Origin: Armatimonadota bacterium
GTDB taxonomy: Bacteria; Armatimonadota; UBA5829; DTLH01
Direction of reading: 5' to 3'
Assembly: GCA_038207085.1 (NCBI GenBank)
Contig: JBBRAE010000004.1
Location: 1-64,000, forward strand
Length of the DNA: 64,000 bases
The number at the start of each line of letters is the position of its first letter. Positions within the stretch are counted from its first letter, which is position 1. Shown here piece by piece: positions 1-26,040 of the stretch. The translations under genes and the position numbers were made by a program. The notes beneath the pieces are model-generated. The model was not told the DNA's origin and made no database searches. It saw only the letters and a list, made by a program, of their open reading frames with translations.

Positions 1-1311
1 AGTCATGTCTTGTCGCCCGTGAGGACGATGGGGAAGCGTTGACAGGGGGAACTCGTAGGCTGGGTATTGAGCCGCGAAATTTCACATCTACTTCAGAGTG
101 CCGACGTCGTGTACATAACGGAAGGCAACATCAGGTGTGTCGATAGCGCGAGACATACCGAACTCTGCGTGGTCGGAGACCCCATGCATGCGAGGAAGCA
201 TCTTGCAGTGAGTGAGAGAGCACATTTCTCACTCGATACGGGAATCGGGATATCCCACAGCCAACCTGTGTAAATGGTAGCATAGGTTCGTGCTGTGAAT
301 CCAAAGGAGCAATACAGCAATGTACGGTTGTGGGAAGTCGGACAGTCCCAGGGTACCTGTGAAGTCCGCGAACAAGGGCACTGACAACAAGGTGTCGGCG
401 GAGCGGATGGAGGGAAGGGGACTGGCCAAGGGGAATGCGCGCGAGCAAAACAGGCTCCGGACACAGAGCCGGGCACGCCTACAAAGCGAGCTTGGGCGTA
501 TACGGCAGATAGCCGAGAGGGATAAAGATGCGAAGTTTACTACGCTCTGGGGAAGTATAAGCCCGCTCGTCACCAACATCTACTTGCACTACGCGCTCGA
601 TATCTGGGCGAGTATCTGGAGAAGAAGCAGCGCAAGAGGCGAAATGCTGATAGTGCGTTTTGCCGACGACGCTGTATTCGGATTCCAGTATAAGTCAGAT
701 GCCGAGAGGTTCCGGGAGGAGTTGAAGAAGCGACTCTCTCGATTCCACCTGGAGCTCAACGCGGAGAAGACGCGCCTGATCGAGTTCGGTCGCCTTGCGG
801 CGACGGATCGAGCAAAGCGTGGGGAGTGCAAGCCGGAGACTTTCGATTTCCTGGGTTTTACGAACATATGCAGTAAGAGCCGGAAAGGAAAGTTCATCGT
901 GCTTCGCCAGACCAGTCGCAAGAAGATGCGGACGAAACTGAAAGAGCTTAGGCTGGAGCTTCGTCGGCGTATGCACGACCCAGTTTGTGAGGTCGGAGTA
1001 GGGCTTCGGAGTGTGCTGATGGGTCACTACCGGTATTATGGTGTGCCCCGCAACAGTGTGGCTATGAGTTCTTTTCGGTATCAGGTTCTCTGGCTATGGC
1101 ATCGCAGTCTGGAGCGACACAGCCAGAAAGCTCGCTGTCGCTGGGACAAGATGAATGTTCTTGCCCAGAGATGGCTTCCCAATCCCAAAATCATGCATCC
1201 ATATCCTGACAAGCGTCTGCGCGTCACTATCTGAGGCAGGAGCCCGGTGCGATAGTCTCGCACGCCGGGATCTGTGCGGGGGCTGGGGGTAACTCCGGTC
1301 CCTACTGCGAC
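1..1311 (+). mobile_element. Group II intron, 3' part (5' end lies outside the window)
   Basis: RT/maturase ORF followed by domain V (gAGCccggtgcgatagtctcgcacgccgggatc, 1240-1272, AGC triad) and a domain VI-like hairpin ending ...ccctactgcgAC at 1311. Confidence 0.9.
320..1234 (+). CDS. ltrA: Group II intron-encoded RT/maturase with in-frame internal deletion (most of RT0-RT4 missing)
   Basis: N-terminal ...KDAKFTTLW joins directly to GSISPLVTNIYLHY; VRFADD, FDFLGF and X domain (LMGHYRYYGVP) are retained; no endonuclease domain. Confidence 0.85.
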   Translation: MYGCGKSDSPRVPVKSANKGTDNKVSAERMEGRGLAKGNAREQNRLRTQSRARLQSELGRIRQIAERDKDAKFTTLWGSISPLVTNIYLHYALDIWASIWRRSSARGEMLIVRFADDAVFGFQYKSDAERFREELKKRLSRFHLELNAEKTRLIEFGRLAATDRAKRGECKPETFDFLGFTNICSKSRKGKFIVLRQTSRKKMRTKLKELRLELRRRMHDPVCEVGVGLRSVLMGHYRYYGVPRNSVAMSSFRYQVLWLWHRSLERHSQKARCRWDKMNVLAQRWLPNPKIMHPYPDKRLRVTI

Positions 1312-1400: not shown

Positions 1401-2675
1401 ATGATACTACGGGAGACAAAAGTGAACATCAGTTATTTCAAGCAGCATGGATTTTCTCAGCGAGAGATTGCTCGAAAGACGGGTAAGCATCGGAAGACCG
1501 TCAAGCGTTATGCCGAGAACCCCGAGCTAATCGGTCAGTTTCGTGCAAAAGTGGAAAGGCCAAGTATTCTGGACGAGTTCCAGCCAACGATCGAGAGTTG
1601 GCTGGAAGACGACAACGATCTTCAGGCGACCAATATCCTCGATAACATCAGAAAGTTGGGCTACTCTGGTGGTTACACAATCGTCAAAGATTTGGTTCGC
1701 GAGATCAAGAAGGACAACAATCGAATCGCCTACATTCGCTTTGAGACCGAACCCGGCAGGCAGGCGCAGGTAGACTTCGGAGACTACATGGTGGTCGAAC
1801 CCGATGGCAGCCTGTCCAAGGTTTACCTGTTTAGCATGATTATGGGTTATTCGCGTGAGCCCTATGGTGAGTTTCTCAAGCGCTGCGACATGACAAGTTT
1901 TCTCGATGTGCACCAGCGAGCGTTCGCCCATTTCAACGGCGTTCCCGCTGAGATTCTTTACGACCGCATGAAGAATGTCTATATTGGCAGACTCGCAGGC
2001 AAGGACAATTTTACGTAGGGGTTGATGACTCTGGCGGATCATTATGGCTTCAGTCCCATGGCGGCACCTGCCTACTGCCCTTGGATGAAGGGAAAAGTGG
2101 AGCGGCCGATGGATTTTATACGGGAGGGATTCTGGAGAGGCTATATATTCACCGGCATTGAGCAGGCAAACCGTGATCTGGCTACGTTCCTGGAGGAGAA
2201 GTCCCATCGTATTCACGGCACAACCAAGGAGAAAGTCTGCGACAGGTTCGAGGCTGAAAAGTCGTTTCTTATGGCTCTGCCTCCGACTCAATGCGATGTG
2301 TCCCAGCGTCTGTATCGCAAGGTTCACAAGGACTGCACGATAAGTGTGGAGGGCTGCCTGTATGAGGTTCCTCACACGCTGGTCGGCAAGAAAATCGTGG
2401 TTCGCCTCAAAGACGGGATCTTGCGAATCTTCGACGGCGACAAGCTGATGGCGACGCGTTCCCAATCGACAGTCAAAGGCGCCCTCGTGAAGCTGCCCGG
2501 CCTTCGTGAGGCGATCCTTGGCGACCGAAAGATGAACGCTCGGAAGTATGACCATCGAAAACGCGGCAAGGGTAAAGCCACGAGGAGTCCCATCAAGGGT
2601 AGGTATGAGGTCGATGTTGAGCGGCGGCCGCTGTCTGTCTACGCTGCGATAGGCGGAGGTGTGGCCTGTGCTTGA
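1401..2675 (+). pseudogene. istA: IS21 transposase IstA interrupted by an in-frame TAG at 2016-2018
   Basis: ORFs 1401-2018 and 2022-2675 share a frame; HTH N-terminus, RFETEPGRQAQVDFG, ILYDRMK and KGKVER DDE motifs. Confidence 0.9.
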
Positions 2676-3450
2676 GCAGCTTGTGATGGAACGACTCACT
2701 GATAACCTGACGCGTCTGAAGCTTTCGAGGCTGTGGGAGAATCTGTCGGATGTCGTGAAAGCCGCCGAAGTCGATTCATGGAGCTATCTGCACCTGCTGG
2801 ACAACCTTTTTGAGGAAGAGGTGGCGGCTCGTGAGCAGAACCGGATCGAAAGCGTGCTCAAAAGCTCTGGCTTACCGTATCTCAAGACCCTCGATGAGTT
2901 CGATTTCGTTTTTCAACCGAGCATCAACCGCCAGCAGATCGTGAACCTGTTCGACCTGGCGTTCGTCGAGCGCAGGGAAAACGTCATCTTCCTGGGACCT
3001 CCGGGGGTCGGCAAGACTCACCTCGCCGTGTCGCTGGCGATAAAGGCGGCGCAGGGCGGTCATACAATCCAGTTCGTAACGATGGCCGATTTAATCTGCA
3101 GACTGCGGGCGGATCGCGAGACGGGCCGTATGAACAGGAGCCGCCGGTGCTGTAAGTCGAGCCTGGTGGTGGTCGACGAGGTCGGCTACACTCCGATTGA
3201 TCGTGATGAGTGCGGTTTATTTTATCAGTTCGTGGCGATGAGATACGAGAAATCGAGCACGATCATCACCTCGAACAAGGCCTTCGACGAGTGGTCGGAA
3301 CTCTTCCACGATCCTGTGATCGTCACGGCGATCCTCGACAGGCTGCTGCACCACAGCGCAGTCGTCAACATCAAGGGCAACAGCTATCGCCTCAAAGGCA
3401 AACTTCCGGCGCCTGCGCCCAGTAAGGTCGAAGGAGAGGTGGTCGACTGA
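2668..3450 (+). CDS. istB: IS21 helper AAA+ ATPase IstB
   Basis: Walker A GPPGVGKT, Walker B VVVDEVG, AILDRLLHH...GNSYRL; GGAGG 8 nt before GTG 2668, overlapping the istA end. Confidence 0.95.
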   Translation: MLEQLVMERLTDNLTRLKLSRLWENLSDVVKAAEVDSWSYLHLLDNLFEEEVAAREQNRIESVLKSSGLPYLKTLDEFDFVFQPSINRQQIVNLFDLAFVERRENVIFLGPPGVGKTHLAVSLAIKAAQGGHTIQFVTMADLICRLRADRETGRMNRSRRCCKSSLVVVDEVGYTPIDRDECGLFYQFVAMRYEKSSTIITSNKAFDEWSELFHDPVIVTAILDRLLHHSAVVNIKGNSYRLKGKLPAPAPSKVEGEVVD

Positions 3451-3767
3451 TGCCCGCGCATAGAAAGTATGCAAGCTCGGCGGCGAAACAGGCGGCGTAC
3501 CGGGCAAGGTGCAATACGCCCCGAAAGCTTTCGGGGGCACCAAGAGCGCCTGCGACCGGGTCCGTATATCATCGATGGGAGGCAATGCGAAAGCAATCCC
3601 TGAGTATCCTCGAACAGATCACCAGCGAGATGGAGGTCTACTCCGACCAACGCCCCGAATCTTGGCAGGACTCAGAGCGCGGAGAGGCATTCACCGAGAC
3701 GATGGAATCGGTGGTGGACATAGCAGATGCACTCAGAGATATCTCACCGAACCCGTCTGAAGCGTAA
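3450..3767 (+). CDS. Hypothetical passenger protein inside IS21 (105 aa)
   Basis: ATG overlaps the istB stop (TGATG) and the ORF lies before the IS right end; basic N-terminus, acidic helical C-terminus. Confidence 0.65.
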   Translation: MPAHRKYASSAAKQAAYRARCNTPRKLSGAPRAPATGSVYHRWEAMRKQSLSILEQITSEMEVYSDQRPESWQDSERGEAFTETMESVVDIADALRDISPNPSEA

Positions 3768-3918
3768 CGCATTACGCTTCAGACCCTCAGATACAATCCA
3801 TGAATGGAGGTGATACAGGAAAATTGTGGCGGCGGGTGGTACACTTTCAGACCGCCATGATTGGTACACTTTCACTCCGCCATTGACACGCAGGATGACT
3901 TCCTTGACACGCAACAGT

Positions 3919-3944
3919 GTAGGGGCGGGCCAACGTGTCCGCCC
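3919..3944 (+). repeat. GTAG-type REP-like hairpin (copy 1)
   Basis: GTAGGGGCGGGCCAAcGTGTCCGCCC; one mismatch to 26015-26040. Confidence 0.7.
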
Positions 3945-3998
3945 GCTCCTTTCCCCCGGTAGAACTATTGGATTTTGCCCAAAGTGAAGAGTTTATGC

Positions 3999-4027
3999 TT
4001 GCATATGGAACCTAAACGCGCTAAAAT
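3999..4027 (+). promoter_or_regulatory. Sigma70-type promoter
   Basis: TTGCAT-17 nt-TAAAAT; predicted start site near 4034. Confidence 0.55.
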
Positions 4028-4033
4028 CGTCTT

Positions 4034-4415
4034 ACTAAGTAGTGGTGCCCCTCTATAGTGCCGCGTTCAACGACCCCGATGGGCTTTCCGACTGATATAG
4101 TTGGCATTGATGATGAATATATGTCAGTAGTGTTGAGGTTCTGTATTAAGTGACCATTTAGTGTTGTTGGCTCTCAAGTTTGTAGGTATGGTAAGGTTTG
4201 ATTGCGGTTGGGCAGTAGGCGGCGTCGTACACGTGGTTTCCCTTGTGGATTCCGCAGAATGCAGGAGTAAGCATCGTGGAGCTTGACTGGCAACGGATGG
4301 CCGCACATCAAGGCGGCGCCGCAGACTGCCCGTTTTGTCGGCCTTGCACGATTGCACTCTTGTAGGCTTGAGCAAGGCCCGTCTGGAAGCGCCTCTTCTG
4401 ACGGGCCGTTTATTT
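4034..4415 (+). ncRNA. Candidate structured RNA (or structured mRNA of a 29-aa ORF at 4276-4365)
   Basis: Nested long-range pairings with many G-U pairs (4173-4186/4359-4372, 4210-4216/4325-4331, 4219-4227/4314-4322), bounded by a promoter and a terminator-like hairpin. Confidence 0.5.
4376..4415 (+). terminator. Terminator-like hairpin
   Basis: GGCCCGTC...GACGGGCC followed by GTTTATTT; may also serve the convergent uvrC. Confidence 0.55.
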
Positions 4416-4426
4416 GGCCCGGCTGC

Positions 4427-6328
4427 CTACGGGTGCAGGTAGGCGAAGACCGCTTCCGCGGCTGACTTGTTCATCGATGGCGCCTGCGCGATCTCCTCAA
4501 GCGTCGCCTCACGGATGCGCTTGAGCGACCCGAAGTGCTTTAGAAGCGCTGTCCTCCGAGCTTTGCCAACCCCCGGAACCTCCATGAGCACCGATTTGGT
4601 CATCGTCTTTGAGCGAAGCTTTCTGTGATACTCCACCGCGAACCGGTGGGCTTCGTCCCGAACCCTCTGCAGGACAAAAAGCGCCTTGGAGCCTCGAAGA
4701 AGCATCCTGGGGTGTCGTTCGTCGGGCTTGTAGATCTCCTCGAACTCTTTGGCGAGCCCGATCAGCGGCGTTTCTTCCCCAAGCTCGCTTGTAACCTCAA
4801 CCGCGACGTTCAACTGCCCGCGCCCGCCGTCTACCATCAATAGGTCTGGAAGCTCCGCGAACTTCTCGCTCTGCCGCAGGCTCCCCGCCAGCCTTCTGGT
4901 GAGCACCTCGCGCATCATCGCGTAGTCGTCGGGCCGTTCGGGGGTGTATTTGATCTTGAAGCGCCGGTAGTCGCTCTTTTTGGGCCTGCCGTTTTCAAAG
5001 ACGACGAGCGAGCCGACCGCTTCTGTCCCCATTATGTTCGAAATATCGTAGCACTCGATTCGCTTCGGCAGCTTCGGCAGGTTAAGCGCGCTTTGGAGTT
5101 CAAGCAGATCACGTTGCGCCGCCTCTTCGTCGGCTTCGACCCTCTTTTGAAGCTGCTCAAGAACGAGCACCGCGTTCTGCCTCGCCATCTCGACCAGTTT
5201 GCGTTTTTCGCCGCGCGACGGGGCGGAAAGCTGCACCTTTGTCCCGCGTTTCTGACGCAGCCAGCTCTCGATGATCCCCATCTCGTCGACCTCACACTGC
5301 AGCAGCACCTCGCGCGGCACGTACGCCGCCGCCTGATAATACTGCTTCACAAACTCCTGCACTGAGACCGCGATGTTCTCTCCGGTCGTCCCTTCGAGCA
5401 CAAAGTGTTCCTGGCCGATCAGCTTTCCTCCCCGGATGAAGAAGAGCTCGGCGATGGCGCTTCCGTTGTCTGTGACAAGCGCTACTACGTCCTGATCGGT
5501 GAGCGCACCGGCGATGACCTTCTGTCGCTCGATGATCTTCTGCACCGCATGCACCTGATCGCGCAGCCTCGCCGCTTTCTCAAATAGCAGCCGCTCGGCA
5601 GCATCCTCCATTTGCGCCTGAAGCTCTTTCAGGAGCGCGTCTTGCCGTCCGTCGAGGAAGAGTATAACGTCCTTGATCGCCTGGCTGTATTCTTCTTCAG
5701 TCACAGCCCCGTTGCAAGGTCCGAGACACTGGCCGATGTGATAGTAGAGGCACGCGCGGCCCTTGGTCGATGCCGGGTCCTTCGCTCCACACGGCACCTT
5801 GAACACCCGACGAATGAGGCGAAGCGTCTCCCGCACCGCGTCGGGGCTTGTGTAGGGCCCAAAATACTTGTCGCCGTTTTTGAAATCGTTGTGGACTTGG
5901 CGCACGAACATCGGGCGCGGCCACCGCTCGGAGGTAGTAACGACGATATAGGGATAGCTCTTGTCGTCCTTCATTCGGACATTGTAGTAGGGCTTGTATT
6001 TCTTGATGAGGTTGGATTCGAGGATTAGCGCCTCAAGCTCGGAGTCGGTGACGATCCACTCGAGGTCGGCGATCTCGTGCACCATCCGCCGCACCTTCTC
6101 AGACACGTCGCGCCCCAGCTTCTGGAAGTAGCTCCGCACCCTGTTCTTAAGCACAACAGCCTTGCCGACGTAGATAACCTCACCGAGTGCGTTCTTCATA
6201 ATATAGCACCCGGGCCGAGTCGGCAGCGCTGAGAGTTTTTCCTTCAGCGTCAAGTAAAAATTGCTTTCTAAGACCCACGAATCAAGCGGGTCGGACGTTT
6301 CTATTACGTCTCTTTTCTCCTCGGTCAT
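4427..6328 (-). CDS. uvrC: Excinuclease ABC subunit C
   Basis: GIY-YIG (PGCYIMK...IYVGKA), UVR domain, IECYDISN, DGGRGQL, RDEAHRFA, C-terminal HhH. Confidence 0.97.
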   Translation of the reverse strand: MTEEKRDVIETSDPLDSWVLESNFYLTLKEKLSALPTRPGCYIMKNALGEVIYVGKAVVLKNRVRSYFQKLGRDVSEKVRRMVHEIADLEWIVTDSELEALILESNLIKKYKPYYNVRMKDDKSYPYIVVTTSERWPRPMFVRQVHNDFKNGDKYFGPYTSPDAVRETLRLIRRVFKVPCGAKDPASTKGRACLYYHIGQCLGPCNGAVTEEEYSQAIKDVILFLDGRQDALLKELQAQMEDAAERLLFEKAARLRDQVHAVQKIIERQKVIAGALTDQDVVALVTDNGSAIAELFFIRGGKLIGQEHFVLEGTTGENIAVSVQEFVKQYYQAAAYVPREVLLQCEVDEMGIIESWLRQKRGTKVQLSAPSRGEKRKLVEMARQNAVLVLEQLQKRVEADEEAAQRDLLELQSALNLPKLPKRIECYDISNIMGTEAVGSLVVFENGRPKKSDYRRFKIKYTPERPDDYAMMREVLTRRLAGSLRQSEKFAELPDLLMVDGGRGQLNVAVEVTSELGEETPLIGLAKEFEEIYKPDERHPRMLLRGSKALFVLQRVRDEAHRFAVEYHRKLRSKTMTKSVLMEVPGVGKARRTALLKHFGSLKRIREATLEEIAQAPSMNKSAAEAVFAYLHP

Positions 6329-7067: not shown

Positions 7068-9980
7068 CTAACTCGCAGCCTCAACCTGTTTCTTCTTCTT
7101 CACCGCCCGCTTCTTGCCGTCCTTCTTCCCATTTGACGACTTACACACGACTTCTGACACCCGCTCCCCAAGTATCTCCCTGAGAAACCTTCCCGTGTAC
7201 GACGCTTCGACGGCAGCGATGATCTCCGGTGGCCCTTCGGCTATGATTTCTCCGCCGCCGTCGCCTCCCTCGGGGCCGAGGTCGACTACCCAGTCTGCGG
7301 TCTTGATCACGTCGAGGTTGTGTTCGATCACGAGCACCGTGTTGCCTGTGTCGACCAGCCGCCCGAGGACCTCAAGGAGTTTCTTGATGTCGTGGAAGTG
7401 CAGCCCCGTCGTCGGCTCATCGAGTATATACATCGTTCGACCAGTGCCGCGCTTGGCGAGCTCGGTTGCGAGCTTGACGCGCTGGGCCTCGCCGCCCGAA
7501 AGTGTCGTCGCCGGCTGCCCGAGCTTTACATAGTCGAGCCCCACGTCGTGGATCGTCTGAAGCTTGCGCGTGATCCGCGGGATATGCTTGAAGAACTCCA
7601 GAGCCTGCCCGACGGTCATATTGAGCACGTCGGAGATCGACTTGCCCTTGTACTTCACTTCCAGGGTCTCACGGCTGTAGCGGCGGCCTTTGCAGACCTC
7701 GCAGGGCACGTAGACGTCGGGCAAGAAGTGCATCTCGATCTTGATGATCCCGTCGCCCTTGCATGCTTCGCAGCGGCCTCCCTTGACGTTAAAGCTGAAC
7801 CGCCCCGGCTGATAACCCCTGACTTTCGCTTCGGGAGTCTGGCTGAAGAGGTCGCGGATCAGGTCGAACGTGCCAGTATAGGTCGCAGGGTTGGACCTCG
7901 GTGTGCGCCCGATCGGCGACTGATCGATGTCGATCACCTTGTCGATGTTCTCAAGCCCCGTGATGTCGTCGTGGTTCCCCCAGGCCCGGTGCGTGCCGTG
8001 GAGCGCGTACATCAGTCGAGGGAAAAGCGTCTCCTGAATGAGCGTGCTCTTCCCCGACCCCGACACACCCGTCACGCAGACAAACGTGCCAAGCGGGATC
8101 TTCAGGTCGACTTTCTTTAAGTTGTGCTCACGCGCGCCTTTTAGCTCGATAAACGCGCCGTTCTCACAGCGCCTCTTCTCAGGAATCGGTATCGACTCGA
8201 CGCCCGAGAGATACTGCCCCGTCACCGAGCGAGGGTTCGCCTTGATATCATCAATCGTCCCTTCGGCAACCACATACCCGCCGTGCTCACCCGCCCCAGG
8301 GCCGATGTCGATGATCCAGTCCGATGCGTGCATCGTATCCTCATCGTGCTCGACGACGATGATCGTGTTGCCAAGGTCGCGCAGATGCAGAAGCGTGTCG
8401 ATCAGCTTTCGGTTGTCGCGCTGGTGCAGCCCGATCGAAGGCTCATCGAGAATGTACAACACCCCCATAAGCCCGGAGCCGATCTGGCTCGCCAGCCTGA
8501 TCCGCTGAGCCTCACCGCCAGCAAGTGTCGCCGCCGTCCGGTCAAGCGTCAGATACCCGAGTCCGACGTTTTCAAGGAACCCGAGCCTCACCTTGATCTC
8601 TTTTACAACCTGGTGAGCGATGGTCTGTTCTCGTACGGTCAGGTCGAGCTCCTCGAACCAAGTCTTCGCAGCCGCGACCGACTTGCTCGCGATCTCGCTT
8701 ATGTTCCGCTCGGCGACAGTGACCGCGAGGCTTTCGGGCTTGAGTCTCATCCCTTTGCAGGTGCTGCAGGGGACGGCTGACATGTAGCGTTCGATCTCCT
8801 CTTTGATCATCTCGCTGCCGGTCTCTTTGTAGCGGCGGTCGAGCCAGTTCATGACGCCTTCGAACTTGGTCTCAAACTCCCGCATCCGCCCGTAGCGGTT
8901 CTTGAAGAAGACCGTGACACGTTTGTCGGACCCATAGAGCAGCGCCTTTATCTGCTTGGCCGAAAGCTCTTTGAGCGGAGTCGTAAGCTCAATGTCGTAG
9001 GCCTTCGCGAACCCTTCGAGCATGGACTGGTGGTAATCGCTCGTGGTGCGGGCAAGCGGGATAATCGCCCCATCGGCGATCGACTTTCGCCTGTCGGGGA
9101 TAACCAGGTTCGCATCGAGCCGCGTATGCACCCCAAGCCCATGACACTCAGGGCACGCGCCGTAGGGGCTGTTAAAACTGAAGTTTCTGGGTGCGATCTC
9201 GTCCAGGCTGATACCGCACTCCGAGCACGCGAAGTTCTCCGAGAAGAATAGCTCTTCGCCGTCGACGATATCTATCGCCACGTTGCCGTTCGCGAGTTTC
9301 AGCGACGTCTCAAGCGAGTCCGCGAGCCGCTTTTCGATCTCAGGCTTGACGACGAGCCTGTCCACGACCACTTCGATGGTGTGCTGCTTGTAGCGGTCCA
9401 TCTCGATGTCGTCGGTCACTTCGTACATCTGCCCATCAACCCGCACGCGCACAAACCCCTGCTTGCGGACATCCTCTATCGCCTGCCGGTACTCGCCCTT
9501 GCGTCCTCGGACGATCGGGGCCATCACCTGAATCTTGGTCCCTTCGGGAAGCGCCGTCACCTGGTCGACTATCTGCTCGACGGTCTGCTGAGCGATCTCG
9601 CGGCCGCACTGCGGGCAGTGGGGGAGCCCGATACGCGCAAACATGAGCCTCAGATAGTCGTAAATCTCCGTGACGGTCCCAACGGTTGATCGCGGGTTCC
9701 GCGTAGTCGACTTCTGATCAATCGACACGGCAGGAGACAGCCCGATGATGTCGTCCACGTCGGGTTTGTCCATCTGCCCCAGGAACTGGCGCGCGTAGGA
9801 CGAAAGCGACTCCACATACCGGCGCTGTCCTTCGGCGTAAATCGTATCGAACGCGAGCGACGACTTCCCCGAGCCTGACAGTCCGGTTATGACAACCAGC
9901 TTGTCGCGCGGGATTTCGACGTCGATGTTCTTGAGGTTATGTTGTCTTGCCCCTCGGATGATGATCTTGTCTTGCGTCAT
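7068..9980 (-). CDS. uvrA: Excinuclease ABC subunit A
   Basis: Start reassigned to [18 protein letters not shown] (ATG 9980); two ABC modules ([18 protein letters not shown]) and Zn-finger CxxC pairs. Confidence 0.98.
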
Positions 9981-10096
9981 TTCACACTTCCTGATAGTCG
10001 CCCCAAGCCTGGGGCATCGTAATATTTTACCATTACGGCTCCTCAGGAACAAACAGAGCTTTACTATCGGGTGCGTGTGGGGAATATTGCCTGTTG

Positions 10097-10273
10097 GTCG
10101 GGGGAATCCGTCCCCCCGACCCCGTTCCGCGGACTCTGTCCGCCAACCCAATGTTCGACTATGCTCCATAATTGAGCTTGGGGGAAGATTCCCCTGAAAC
10201 GGCATCCGGGGACAGATTCCCCGGACGAACGACGAAAACATCCATTCTTCATCGAACGCATTTCTCGATGAAG
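10097..10273. repeat. Cluster of related GGGGA...TCCCC hairpins plus one further inverted repeat
   Basis: gtcgggggaatccgtccccccgac, gggggaagattcccc, tccggggacagattccccgga and cttcatcga...tcgatgaag lie between the TPR gene and uvrA. Confidence 0.5.
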
Positions 10274-10305
10274 TCAGTTGTGCCCCGTTTTTGGATCGAG
10301 TTGCC

Positions 10306-10668
10306 TCAGGACGCGGGTGCGACCCTGTGGAGCCCTTCGCTTGCCGGCATGTAGGCCGGGTCCATCTCAGCGGCGATCTGATACTGCGTCGCCGCATCCT
10401 TGGCTCGCCCGACCATCTCGTAGGCTTTGGCGAGGTTGGAGTGCGCCCGTGCGCTATCCTCCTCGGCCAGTGCGTGCTCCAGGGCAGCGACGGTCATAGC
10501 CTTGTCGCCCTGCTTGTGATAAGCCGCCGCCATAATCGTGTAGGCAAGCGCGTTTTCGGGGTAAGCCGCGACCACCCGTTCGAGACACTCAAGACACTCT
10601 TCAACATTCCCTTCGCGAAGCAGTTGCATCGCGACATCCGTGGATGGATGACCTTGAAACTTTGGCAT
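10306..10668 (-). CDS. Small TPR-repeat protein
   Basis: 120 aa of TPR-like helices (AYTIMAAAY..., AHSNLAKAY...DPAY); AAGGAG upstream. Confidence 0.8.
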
Positions 10669-26014: not shown

Positions 26015-26040
26015 GTAGGGGCGGGCCAATGTGTCCGCCC
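26015..26040 (+). repeat. GTAG-type REP-like hairpin (copy 2)
   Basis: GTAGGGGCGGGCCAAtGTGTCCGCCC. Confidence 0.7.

Follow-up and report, generated by a model that had tools for sequence, protein, structure and literature searches.

A candidate small RNA gene between mobile elements and uvrC in an uncultured Armatimonadota bacterium

The window, i.e., the 64,000-nucleotide stretch of DNA analysed here, is contig C4 (GenBank JBBRAE010000004.1) of an Armatimonadota assembly that totals 3.35 Mb in 83 contigs. Close to its start, a gap of 540 nt separates a series of mobile elements from the repair gene uvrC, and the remainder of this gap is filled by a unit at positions 3999-4415 that runs from a promoter-like site to a terminator-like hairpin. 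The first-pass annotation had proposed that this unit specifies a new structured non-coding RNA. The question that the locus raises is whether it is indeed an RNA gene and, if so, from which strand it is read, which part of it matters and whether it belongs to any family of RNAs already described.

The locus and its transcription signals

The contig opens within a group II intron, the 3' part of which is followed by its reverse-transcriptase frame and, further on, by an IS21-family element and a REP-like repeat (Table 1). By eye, positions ~1240-1299 resemble a domain V/VI hairpin pair, on which Rfam is silent at gathering score; if this reading is right, the intron stops just short of the IS21 element and is uninterrupted by it. 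In the IS21 element, a stop between positions 2018 and 2022 splits istA into two frames, and istB is intact. An extra frame of 105 aa inside the element (3450-3767) has no Pfam match, and its stop is overlapped by a perfect 13-bp palindromic hairpin (3755-3784) after which no U run occurs. The right end carries two 22-nt direct repeats (3837-3858 and 3862-3883) as well as the sequence TTGACACGCA twice (3883-3892 and 3904-3913). In other genomes of the order, related elements have ends that match this one (3780-3889), which was not found elsewhere in the genome to which it belongs. The palindromic 27-nt core of the REP-like repeat (3918-3944), by comparison, recurs at no fewer than 13 other sites in the genome, including window positions 26015-26040.

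On the other side of the unit, uvrC lies on the minus strand, ends at 4427 and thus converges with the candidate. In four of five family relatives uvrC is followed by a YhcH-like gene, the contig of the fifth being uninformative, as it stops 220 bases below uvrC; a GNAT-like gene comes next in three of the four relatives with the uvrC-YhcH order. In the present genome the YhcH-like gene sits at C1:65032-65475. Because this gene lies on another contig, the region downstream of uvrC is best described as a rearranged synteny break adjoining mobile elements. The G+C content at the locus is low (0.435-0.47 in 4001-4300), and a position at a synteny break among mobile elements, together with low G+C, would suit DNA that was imported or is in decay. 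The candidate is not, however, a degraded version of the YhcH-like gene found below uvrC in the relatives; that gene is present on contig C1.

The promoter-like site that had been described upstream of the unit is present in the sequence (Table 1) and predicts a transcription start near 4034-4036. It matches the two consensus hexamers at 8 of 12 positions (only three of six in the -35 hexamer), and a consensus scanner with a limit of 9 therefore left it unlisted. Matches to the pattern TTG-N20-TAAAAT number two in the window, where 0.10 would be expected and where 1 of 100 shuffles reached a count of two, and 19 in the entire genome; seven of these genomic matches lie outside open frames of at least 100 aa, as against 64 of 1000 random sites. 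The second match in the window (10024-10052, minus strand) falls within the 5' part of a 1109-aa UvrA-like frame (7068-10397) and may represent chance or an internal promoter. The organism uses the classical sigma-70 consensus, as deduced from the sites TTGnnn-16..18-TAnnnT found at most 120 nt upstream of 32 of the 43 tRNA genes, where the background is 0.049 per 120 nt; these tRNA promoters are mostly of the form TTGACx-17-TATAAT and end 9-25 nt before the tRNA. Furthermore, the 6S RNA gene of this genome is preceded by TTGTGA-17-TAAAAT, a site of the same class as that of the candidate; another TTGCAT...TAAAAT site on the same contig, C32, led nowhere. The candidate promoter is thus plausible on its letters, in A+T-rich intergenic DNA that favours such motifs anyway.

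At the opposite end of the unit, the hairpin that had been called terminator-like qualifies as an intrinsic terminator on the plus strand: its stem of 13 bp, with one bulge and a folding energy of -21.6 kcal/mol, is followed by GUUUAUUU, and the terminator ends 11 nt before the stop codon of uvrC, which is on the opposite strand. When the same hairpin is read on the minus strand, UUGCUCAA comes next and there is no U run. Since the U run exists on the plus side only, the hairpin is built to stop plus-strand transcription. A simple scanner missed this terminator, for which the bulge in the stem may, at a guess, account.

Table 1. Features of the candidate locus and its upstream neighbourhood, with folding statistics relative to shuffled sequences (positions are those of the window)
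Feature	Position	Strand	Details
Group II intron, 3' part, cut by contig start	1-182		Rfam RF02005; D1-D4 matches
Reverse-transcriptase frame of group II intron	320-1234
IS21-family element	1401-3889		IstA in two frames, 1401-2018 and 2022-2675; IstB 2659-3450
REP-like repeat, 58 nt	3908-3965		98% identical to C18:138-195
Sigma-70-type promoter-like site, TTGCAT-17-TAAAAT	3999-4027	+	TTGCAT 3999-4004; TAAAAT 4022-4027
Whole unit	4034-4415	+	z -1.97; 3/100 shuffles as good
Whole unit	4034-4415	-	z -1.43; 7/100 shuffles as good
5' domain	4034-4163	+	z -1.34; 15/200 shuffles as good
Variable G+U-rich 5' part	4034-4195	+	5' domain and 5' arm of outer rod; no coding pattern
Rod	4164-4373	+	z -2.46; 2/200 shuffles as good
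Rod	4164-4373	-	z -1.92; 6/200 shuffles as good
Conserved block	4196-4415	+	z -2.56
Conserved body of candidate RNA	4196-4375	+	2 substitutions in X3 (4196-4343), 2 in X2 (4266-4416)
Core	4209-4332	+	z -3.64; 0/200 shuffles as good; MFE -59.2 kcal/mol
Core	4209-4332	-	z -3.58; 0/200 shuffles as good
Core stems	4209-4216/4325-4332; 4219-4228/4313-4322	+	Inverted repeat 4210-4227/4314-4331
Core hairpins	4230-4247; 4250-4281; 4282-4312	+	Loop AGGAGUAA in 4250-4281; loop AACGGAUG in 4282-4312
29-codon frame	4276-4365	+	GTG 4276 to TAG 4363-4365; AGGAG 4264-4268, 7 nt upstream
Linker between core and terminator	4333-4375	+	UUGCAC twice, 4344-4349 and 4352-4357
Intrinsic terminator	4376-4415	+	Hairpin 4376-4407, then GUUUAUUU

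A folded core and an uneven pattern of change

The helices on which the proposed structure was based are real as far as complementarity is concerned: all ten can form, and 69 of their 70 gapless positions pair, 13 of them as G-U. When folding is compared with that of shuffled sequences, however, its significance is modest outside a core of 124 nt (4209-4332), and this core alone stands out, on both strands (Table 1). The proposed folding was thus borne out for the core, proved weak for the unit as a whole and was not upheld for the 5' domain. In the minimum-energy fold the apex of the supposed rod consists of three hairpins on an interrupted stem of 18 bp, and hence of a four-way junction and not a continuous rod. 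Without formation of the outer rod, the linker between core and terminator would be single-stranded. It had also been argued that the many G-U pairs work on the plus strand only; this holds in the outer stems (15 of 68 pairs, versus 4 of 52 pairs on the minus strand) and does not hold in the core (6 versus 4), and the outer stems are G+U-rich, and shuffles absorb most of the strand difference in G-U pairs. Because either strand of the core folds as well as the other, and because the contigs described below carry no strand, it is the promoter and the terminator, and only these, that assign the unit to the plus strand.

Partial copies of this stretch occur in two public runs, here termed X2 and X3, both from studies other than that of the probable source sample. 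X3 is a metatranscriptome from another study and another habitat, in which a contig of 293 nt (depth 15.3) aligns with positions 4056-4343 and differs from the window by 24 substitutions, 23 of which are listed, and by one deletion. The changes are distributed unevenly, affecting 21 of 140 positions in 4056-4195 as opposed to 2 of 148 in 4196-4343, with the deletion at 4195 (Fisher p 1.2e-5, or 6e-5 in the worst case, in which the one unlisted substitution is placed in the 4196-4343 part). Just two of the 23 listed substitutions, 4234 T>C and 4288 T>C, lie beyond 4195, and both fit the predicted fold of the core, as 4234 is unpaired and the change at 4288 converts a U-G pair to C-G. The 5' domain behaves differently: of four changes at positions predicted to be paired and for which the partner is also covered, three break the pair, and this domain, which evolves fast and whose fold lacks significance, is not supported as proposed. 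Nor did the outer part of the ~200-nt rod withstand the comparison, its pairing being disrupted by changes at 4170 and 4191 and by the deletion at 4195, unless partners that lie outside the contig compensated.

In X2, a soil DNA run, a 151-nt record that covers 4266-4416 shows two changes, while a record on the end of uvrC (4429-4579) shows eight, a contrast (2 versus 8 changes per 151 nt) with p 0.10 when taken alone. As far as these two copies can tell, the 3' block accumulates changes at a far lower rate than its own 5' half, and apparently also at a lower rate than the adjacent uvrC coding sequence. The core changes some ten times more slowly than the 5' half, and its slow change relative to both that half and the coding end of uvrC points to a specific structural role. 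Such contigs give neither strand nor ends nor RNA level, and RNA libraries can hold DNA; run X3 does not cover uvrC or the insertion sequence from the same organism, an absence that was not counted as evidence.

The X3 contig is non-coding, since all six frames carry stops: once the 23 listed substitutions and the deletion are introduced, at least two stops occur in every frame of the X3 copy, and the window copy of the same stretch has 1 to 9 stops per frame. No homologues were found for a frame of 83 aa. A type I toxin mRNA was also considered, on account of a hydrophobic 41-aa frame at 4161-4286, and rejected, as in the X3 relative the start of this frame (4162) is gone and a frameshift occurs at 4195. 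A small-protein gene with synonymous bias was likewise rejected for the 29-codon frame listed in Table 1. The only change seen within 4276-4365, at 4288, falls in a first codon position and replaces Trp by Arg, which leaves one non-synonymous and no synonymous change, and the 40-aa frame that contains it has no homologue among 5.8 billion protein clusters.

Homologues and known RNA families

The sequence 3999-4415 is single-copy in its genome, as judged by both BLAST and a covariance model, and BLAST matched it in none of 40 relatives. Five other genomes gave BLAST matches, exclusively to the insertion-sequence end (3780-3889) or to the REP-like repeat (3908-3965), and 35 other genomes of the order gave no real match, the two foreign matches of 21 nt having E about 0.05. 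Homologues in the neighbourhood of uvrC, which had been suggested as a source of covariation, were sought by tblastx and blastn in the 1.5 kb below this gene at the loci of 29 relatives, and none was obtained (lowest E values 0.17 and 0.74). A covariance model termed R1, which covers 4191-4347 and was built from one sequence, was searched against 151 genomes from the phylum and 36 from the order and found only itself, plus chance-level hits with E of 0.016 and 0.18; neither of these contains the main stems, and the former overlaps long open frames, so both were dismissed. Searches of plasmids and phages with 3999-4415 were negative, as were a pattern scan of viral contigs and two kinds of metagenome scan, one using a 20-mer and the other a purine/pyrimidine-degenerate pattern. 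A 20-mer scan of a genome collection returned two matches of 21-22 nt, inside unrelated frames in assemblies from Acidobacteriota and Porphyromonadaceae, which were set aside as chance. The candidate is thus probably restricted to the nearest relatives of this uncultured bacterium, as judged from the databases searched here.

With regard to known families, a resemblance to 6S RNA, a highly expressed stable RNA, had been suggested by the ~200-nt rod-like fold, and one to bacterial SRP RNA by short sequence similarities. Neither lead survived comparison with Rfam, in which no family, 6S and SRP included, reached gathering score on the candidate, and in which searches of 1001 and 391 bases with lax filters and E up to 10 returned chance-level hits only. 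The minimum-energy and centroid folds of the candidate show small internal loops and the three-hairpin apex, and differ from 6S RNA in that they have no central bubble, which in 6S RNA is large and mimics an open promoter; the SRP models (RF00169 and RF01854) find no match, domain IV included. Moreover, the genome holds its own copies of both RNAs elsewhere, i.e., a 6S RNA (RF00013) at C32:25773-25962 (70.8 bits) and a small SRP RNA at C7:54514-54613 (71.4 bits). The candidate is neither 6S RNA nor SRP RNA. In the region of the 6S gene (C32:25773-26015), ~25 nt separate the end of the -10 hexamer from the beginning of the Rfam match, and this spacing suggests a processed 5' leader on the 6S RNA. 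ARAGORN detected no tRNA or tmRNA in the candidate.

Comparison with regulatory RNAs is more informative about general architecture. The genome encodes both hfq and csrA, so the usual partners of small RNAs (sRNAs) exist. With Hfq-associated intergenic sRNAs the candidate shares a promoter-to-terminator organization, a U-tailed hairpin and a conserved stretch, predicted to be single-stranded, before the terminator. It differs from them in its length, ~380 nt being long for the class, and in its conserved part, which is a large four-way junction instead of a short seed; it also has no Rfam family and no target complementarity above chance, as complementarity within the genome extends over 14-15 nt at most, no more than chance would give. 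CsrB, RsmY and RsmZ carry many GGA motifs, mostly in hairpin loops, by which they titrate CsrA. The candidate, of a size near that of CsrB, presents GGA in two of its three apical loops (4264 and 4295), yet the motif is not enriched (five in 4247-4415 against 2.96 expected, P 0.15, two of them in loops, and none in 4034-4246), nor is there an Rfam match. In addition, csrA (C10:73340-73495, 85.4 bits) here adjoins fliW, which encodes its protein antagonist. Two FliW-family genes were found, at C7:39559-39909 and C10:72922-73281, and it is only the C10 copy that adjoins csrA. Finally, GadY-type cis-antisense sRNAs overlap a convergent mRNA at its 3' end; the candidate converges on uvrC, ends 11 nt short of its stop and would show full complementarity to any transcript reading through from uvrC, but it does not overlap the uvrC coding frame.

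Competing explanations and significance

The reading that we prefer, with a probability of about one half, is that of a genus-restricted plus-strand sRNA gene, the conserved part of which spans 4196-4415. Of the original proposal, a non-coding promoter-to-terminator unit remains the best account, backed by a homologue in an RNA library and by the conserved 3' block, and what found no support are the 5' domain, the long rod and the likeness to 6S and SRP RNA. Against this reading stands the view that the locus is a non-functional relic or import at a rearrangement junction, in which the hairpin would only shield uvrC from plus-strand transcription out of the insertion sequence or a lost gene, promoter and folds would be chance, and the step in divergence would be a recombination boundary between strains. 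The synteny break downstream of uvrC, the IS21 copy, group II intron and REP-like repeat directly upstream, the low G+C, the weak fold of the whole unit and the lack of any homologue outside near relatives all agree with such an origin. A simple recombination boundary would not, however, predict that the 3' block in X2 is less changed than the end of uvrC, and the homologue that forms a short contig of its own in an RNA library, the z of -3.64 for the core and the rarity in the genome of sites like the promoter are also at odds with it; we regard it as unlikely, though a serious contender. The inverted repeat of the core, together with the REP-like repeat nearby, might alternatively betray a palindromic mobile repeat (MITE- or REPIN-like) whose fold is a by-product, but the sequence is single-copy by BLAST and covariance model, no copy occurs in relatives, and neither terminal repeats nor a target duplication were seen, which makes this explanation scarcely credible.

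The same conserved block could be transcribed from the other side, as a structured 3' UTR of uvrC in which hairpin and core protect the end of the mRNA and a C-rich, G-poor tract (4210-4100) loads Rho. The block sets in directly behind the uvrC stop codon, folding of the core is just as strong on the minus strand (z -3.58), the hairpin is followed by no U run on that strand, and minus-strand positions 4100-4210 contain 30.6% C and 8.1% G, C-rich and G-poor tracts being those that Rho prefers. Yet the U run is on the plus side of the hairpin and the promoter-like site faces the same way, 3' UTRs are rarely more conserved than the neighbouring coding end, and the X3 contig (4056-4343) is not joined to uvrC, a weak point as contigs break for many reasons; on balance a role as uvrC 3' UTR seems rather improbable. 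The plus-strand transcript might, on the other hand, be the mRNA of a 29-residue cysteine-bearing peptide (4276-4365) with its AGGAG exposed in a hairpin loop, or the RNA might serve both roles. The motif is a good Shine-Dalgarno-like one at good spacing, and the frame lies entirely within the conserved block and stops 10 nt before the terminator. Nevertheless, the lack of homologues of the containing 40-aa frame and the non-synonymous nature of the only change do not favour it, as a constraint on coding alone would leave third positions free, and the 80 nt upstream (4196-4275) are just as conserved, with one change, so the chance of a peptide mRNA is slim.

According to the preferred reading of an sRNA gene, transcription would start near 4034 from the sigma-70-type promoter and end at the intrinsic terminator at ~4415. 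The functional part would be the conserved 3' 220 nt, made up of the 124-nt four-way-junction core, a linker of ~40 nt and the terminator hairpin, while the G+U-rich 5' 160 nt evolve fast. We infer that the RNA may be a riboregulator that acts in trans, with conserved exposed loops and linker binding a protein or an mRNA; as the two genes converge, pairing with read-through transcripts of uvrC is another possibility. A far bolder proposal is that it founds a class of structured regulatory RNAs of its own, limited to a single Armatimonadota-like genus but plentiful in the environment, in which a nearly invariant four-way junction shows two GGA-bearing loops ~30 nt apart to a protein partner and which, in its boldest form, titrates CsrA of the FliW type. 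We hold this to be very improbable; if titration of CsrA were true, it would be the first RNA antagonist of CsrA outside Proteobacteria.

A literature search for Armatimonadota and small RNA returned, by title and the beginning of the abstract, no work on sRNAs of the phylum, and we know of no other sRNA candidate with a hint of expression in nature in this poorly studied and mostly uncultured phylum. Should the candidate prove not to be real, what is left is an ordinary junction at which mobile elements meet a repair gene. If it is real, it would give the phylum an sRNA candidate with such a hint of expression. The case also shows that public metatranscriptome contigs can provide a conservation-plus-expression test for orphan RNAs for which covariation analysis is impossible.
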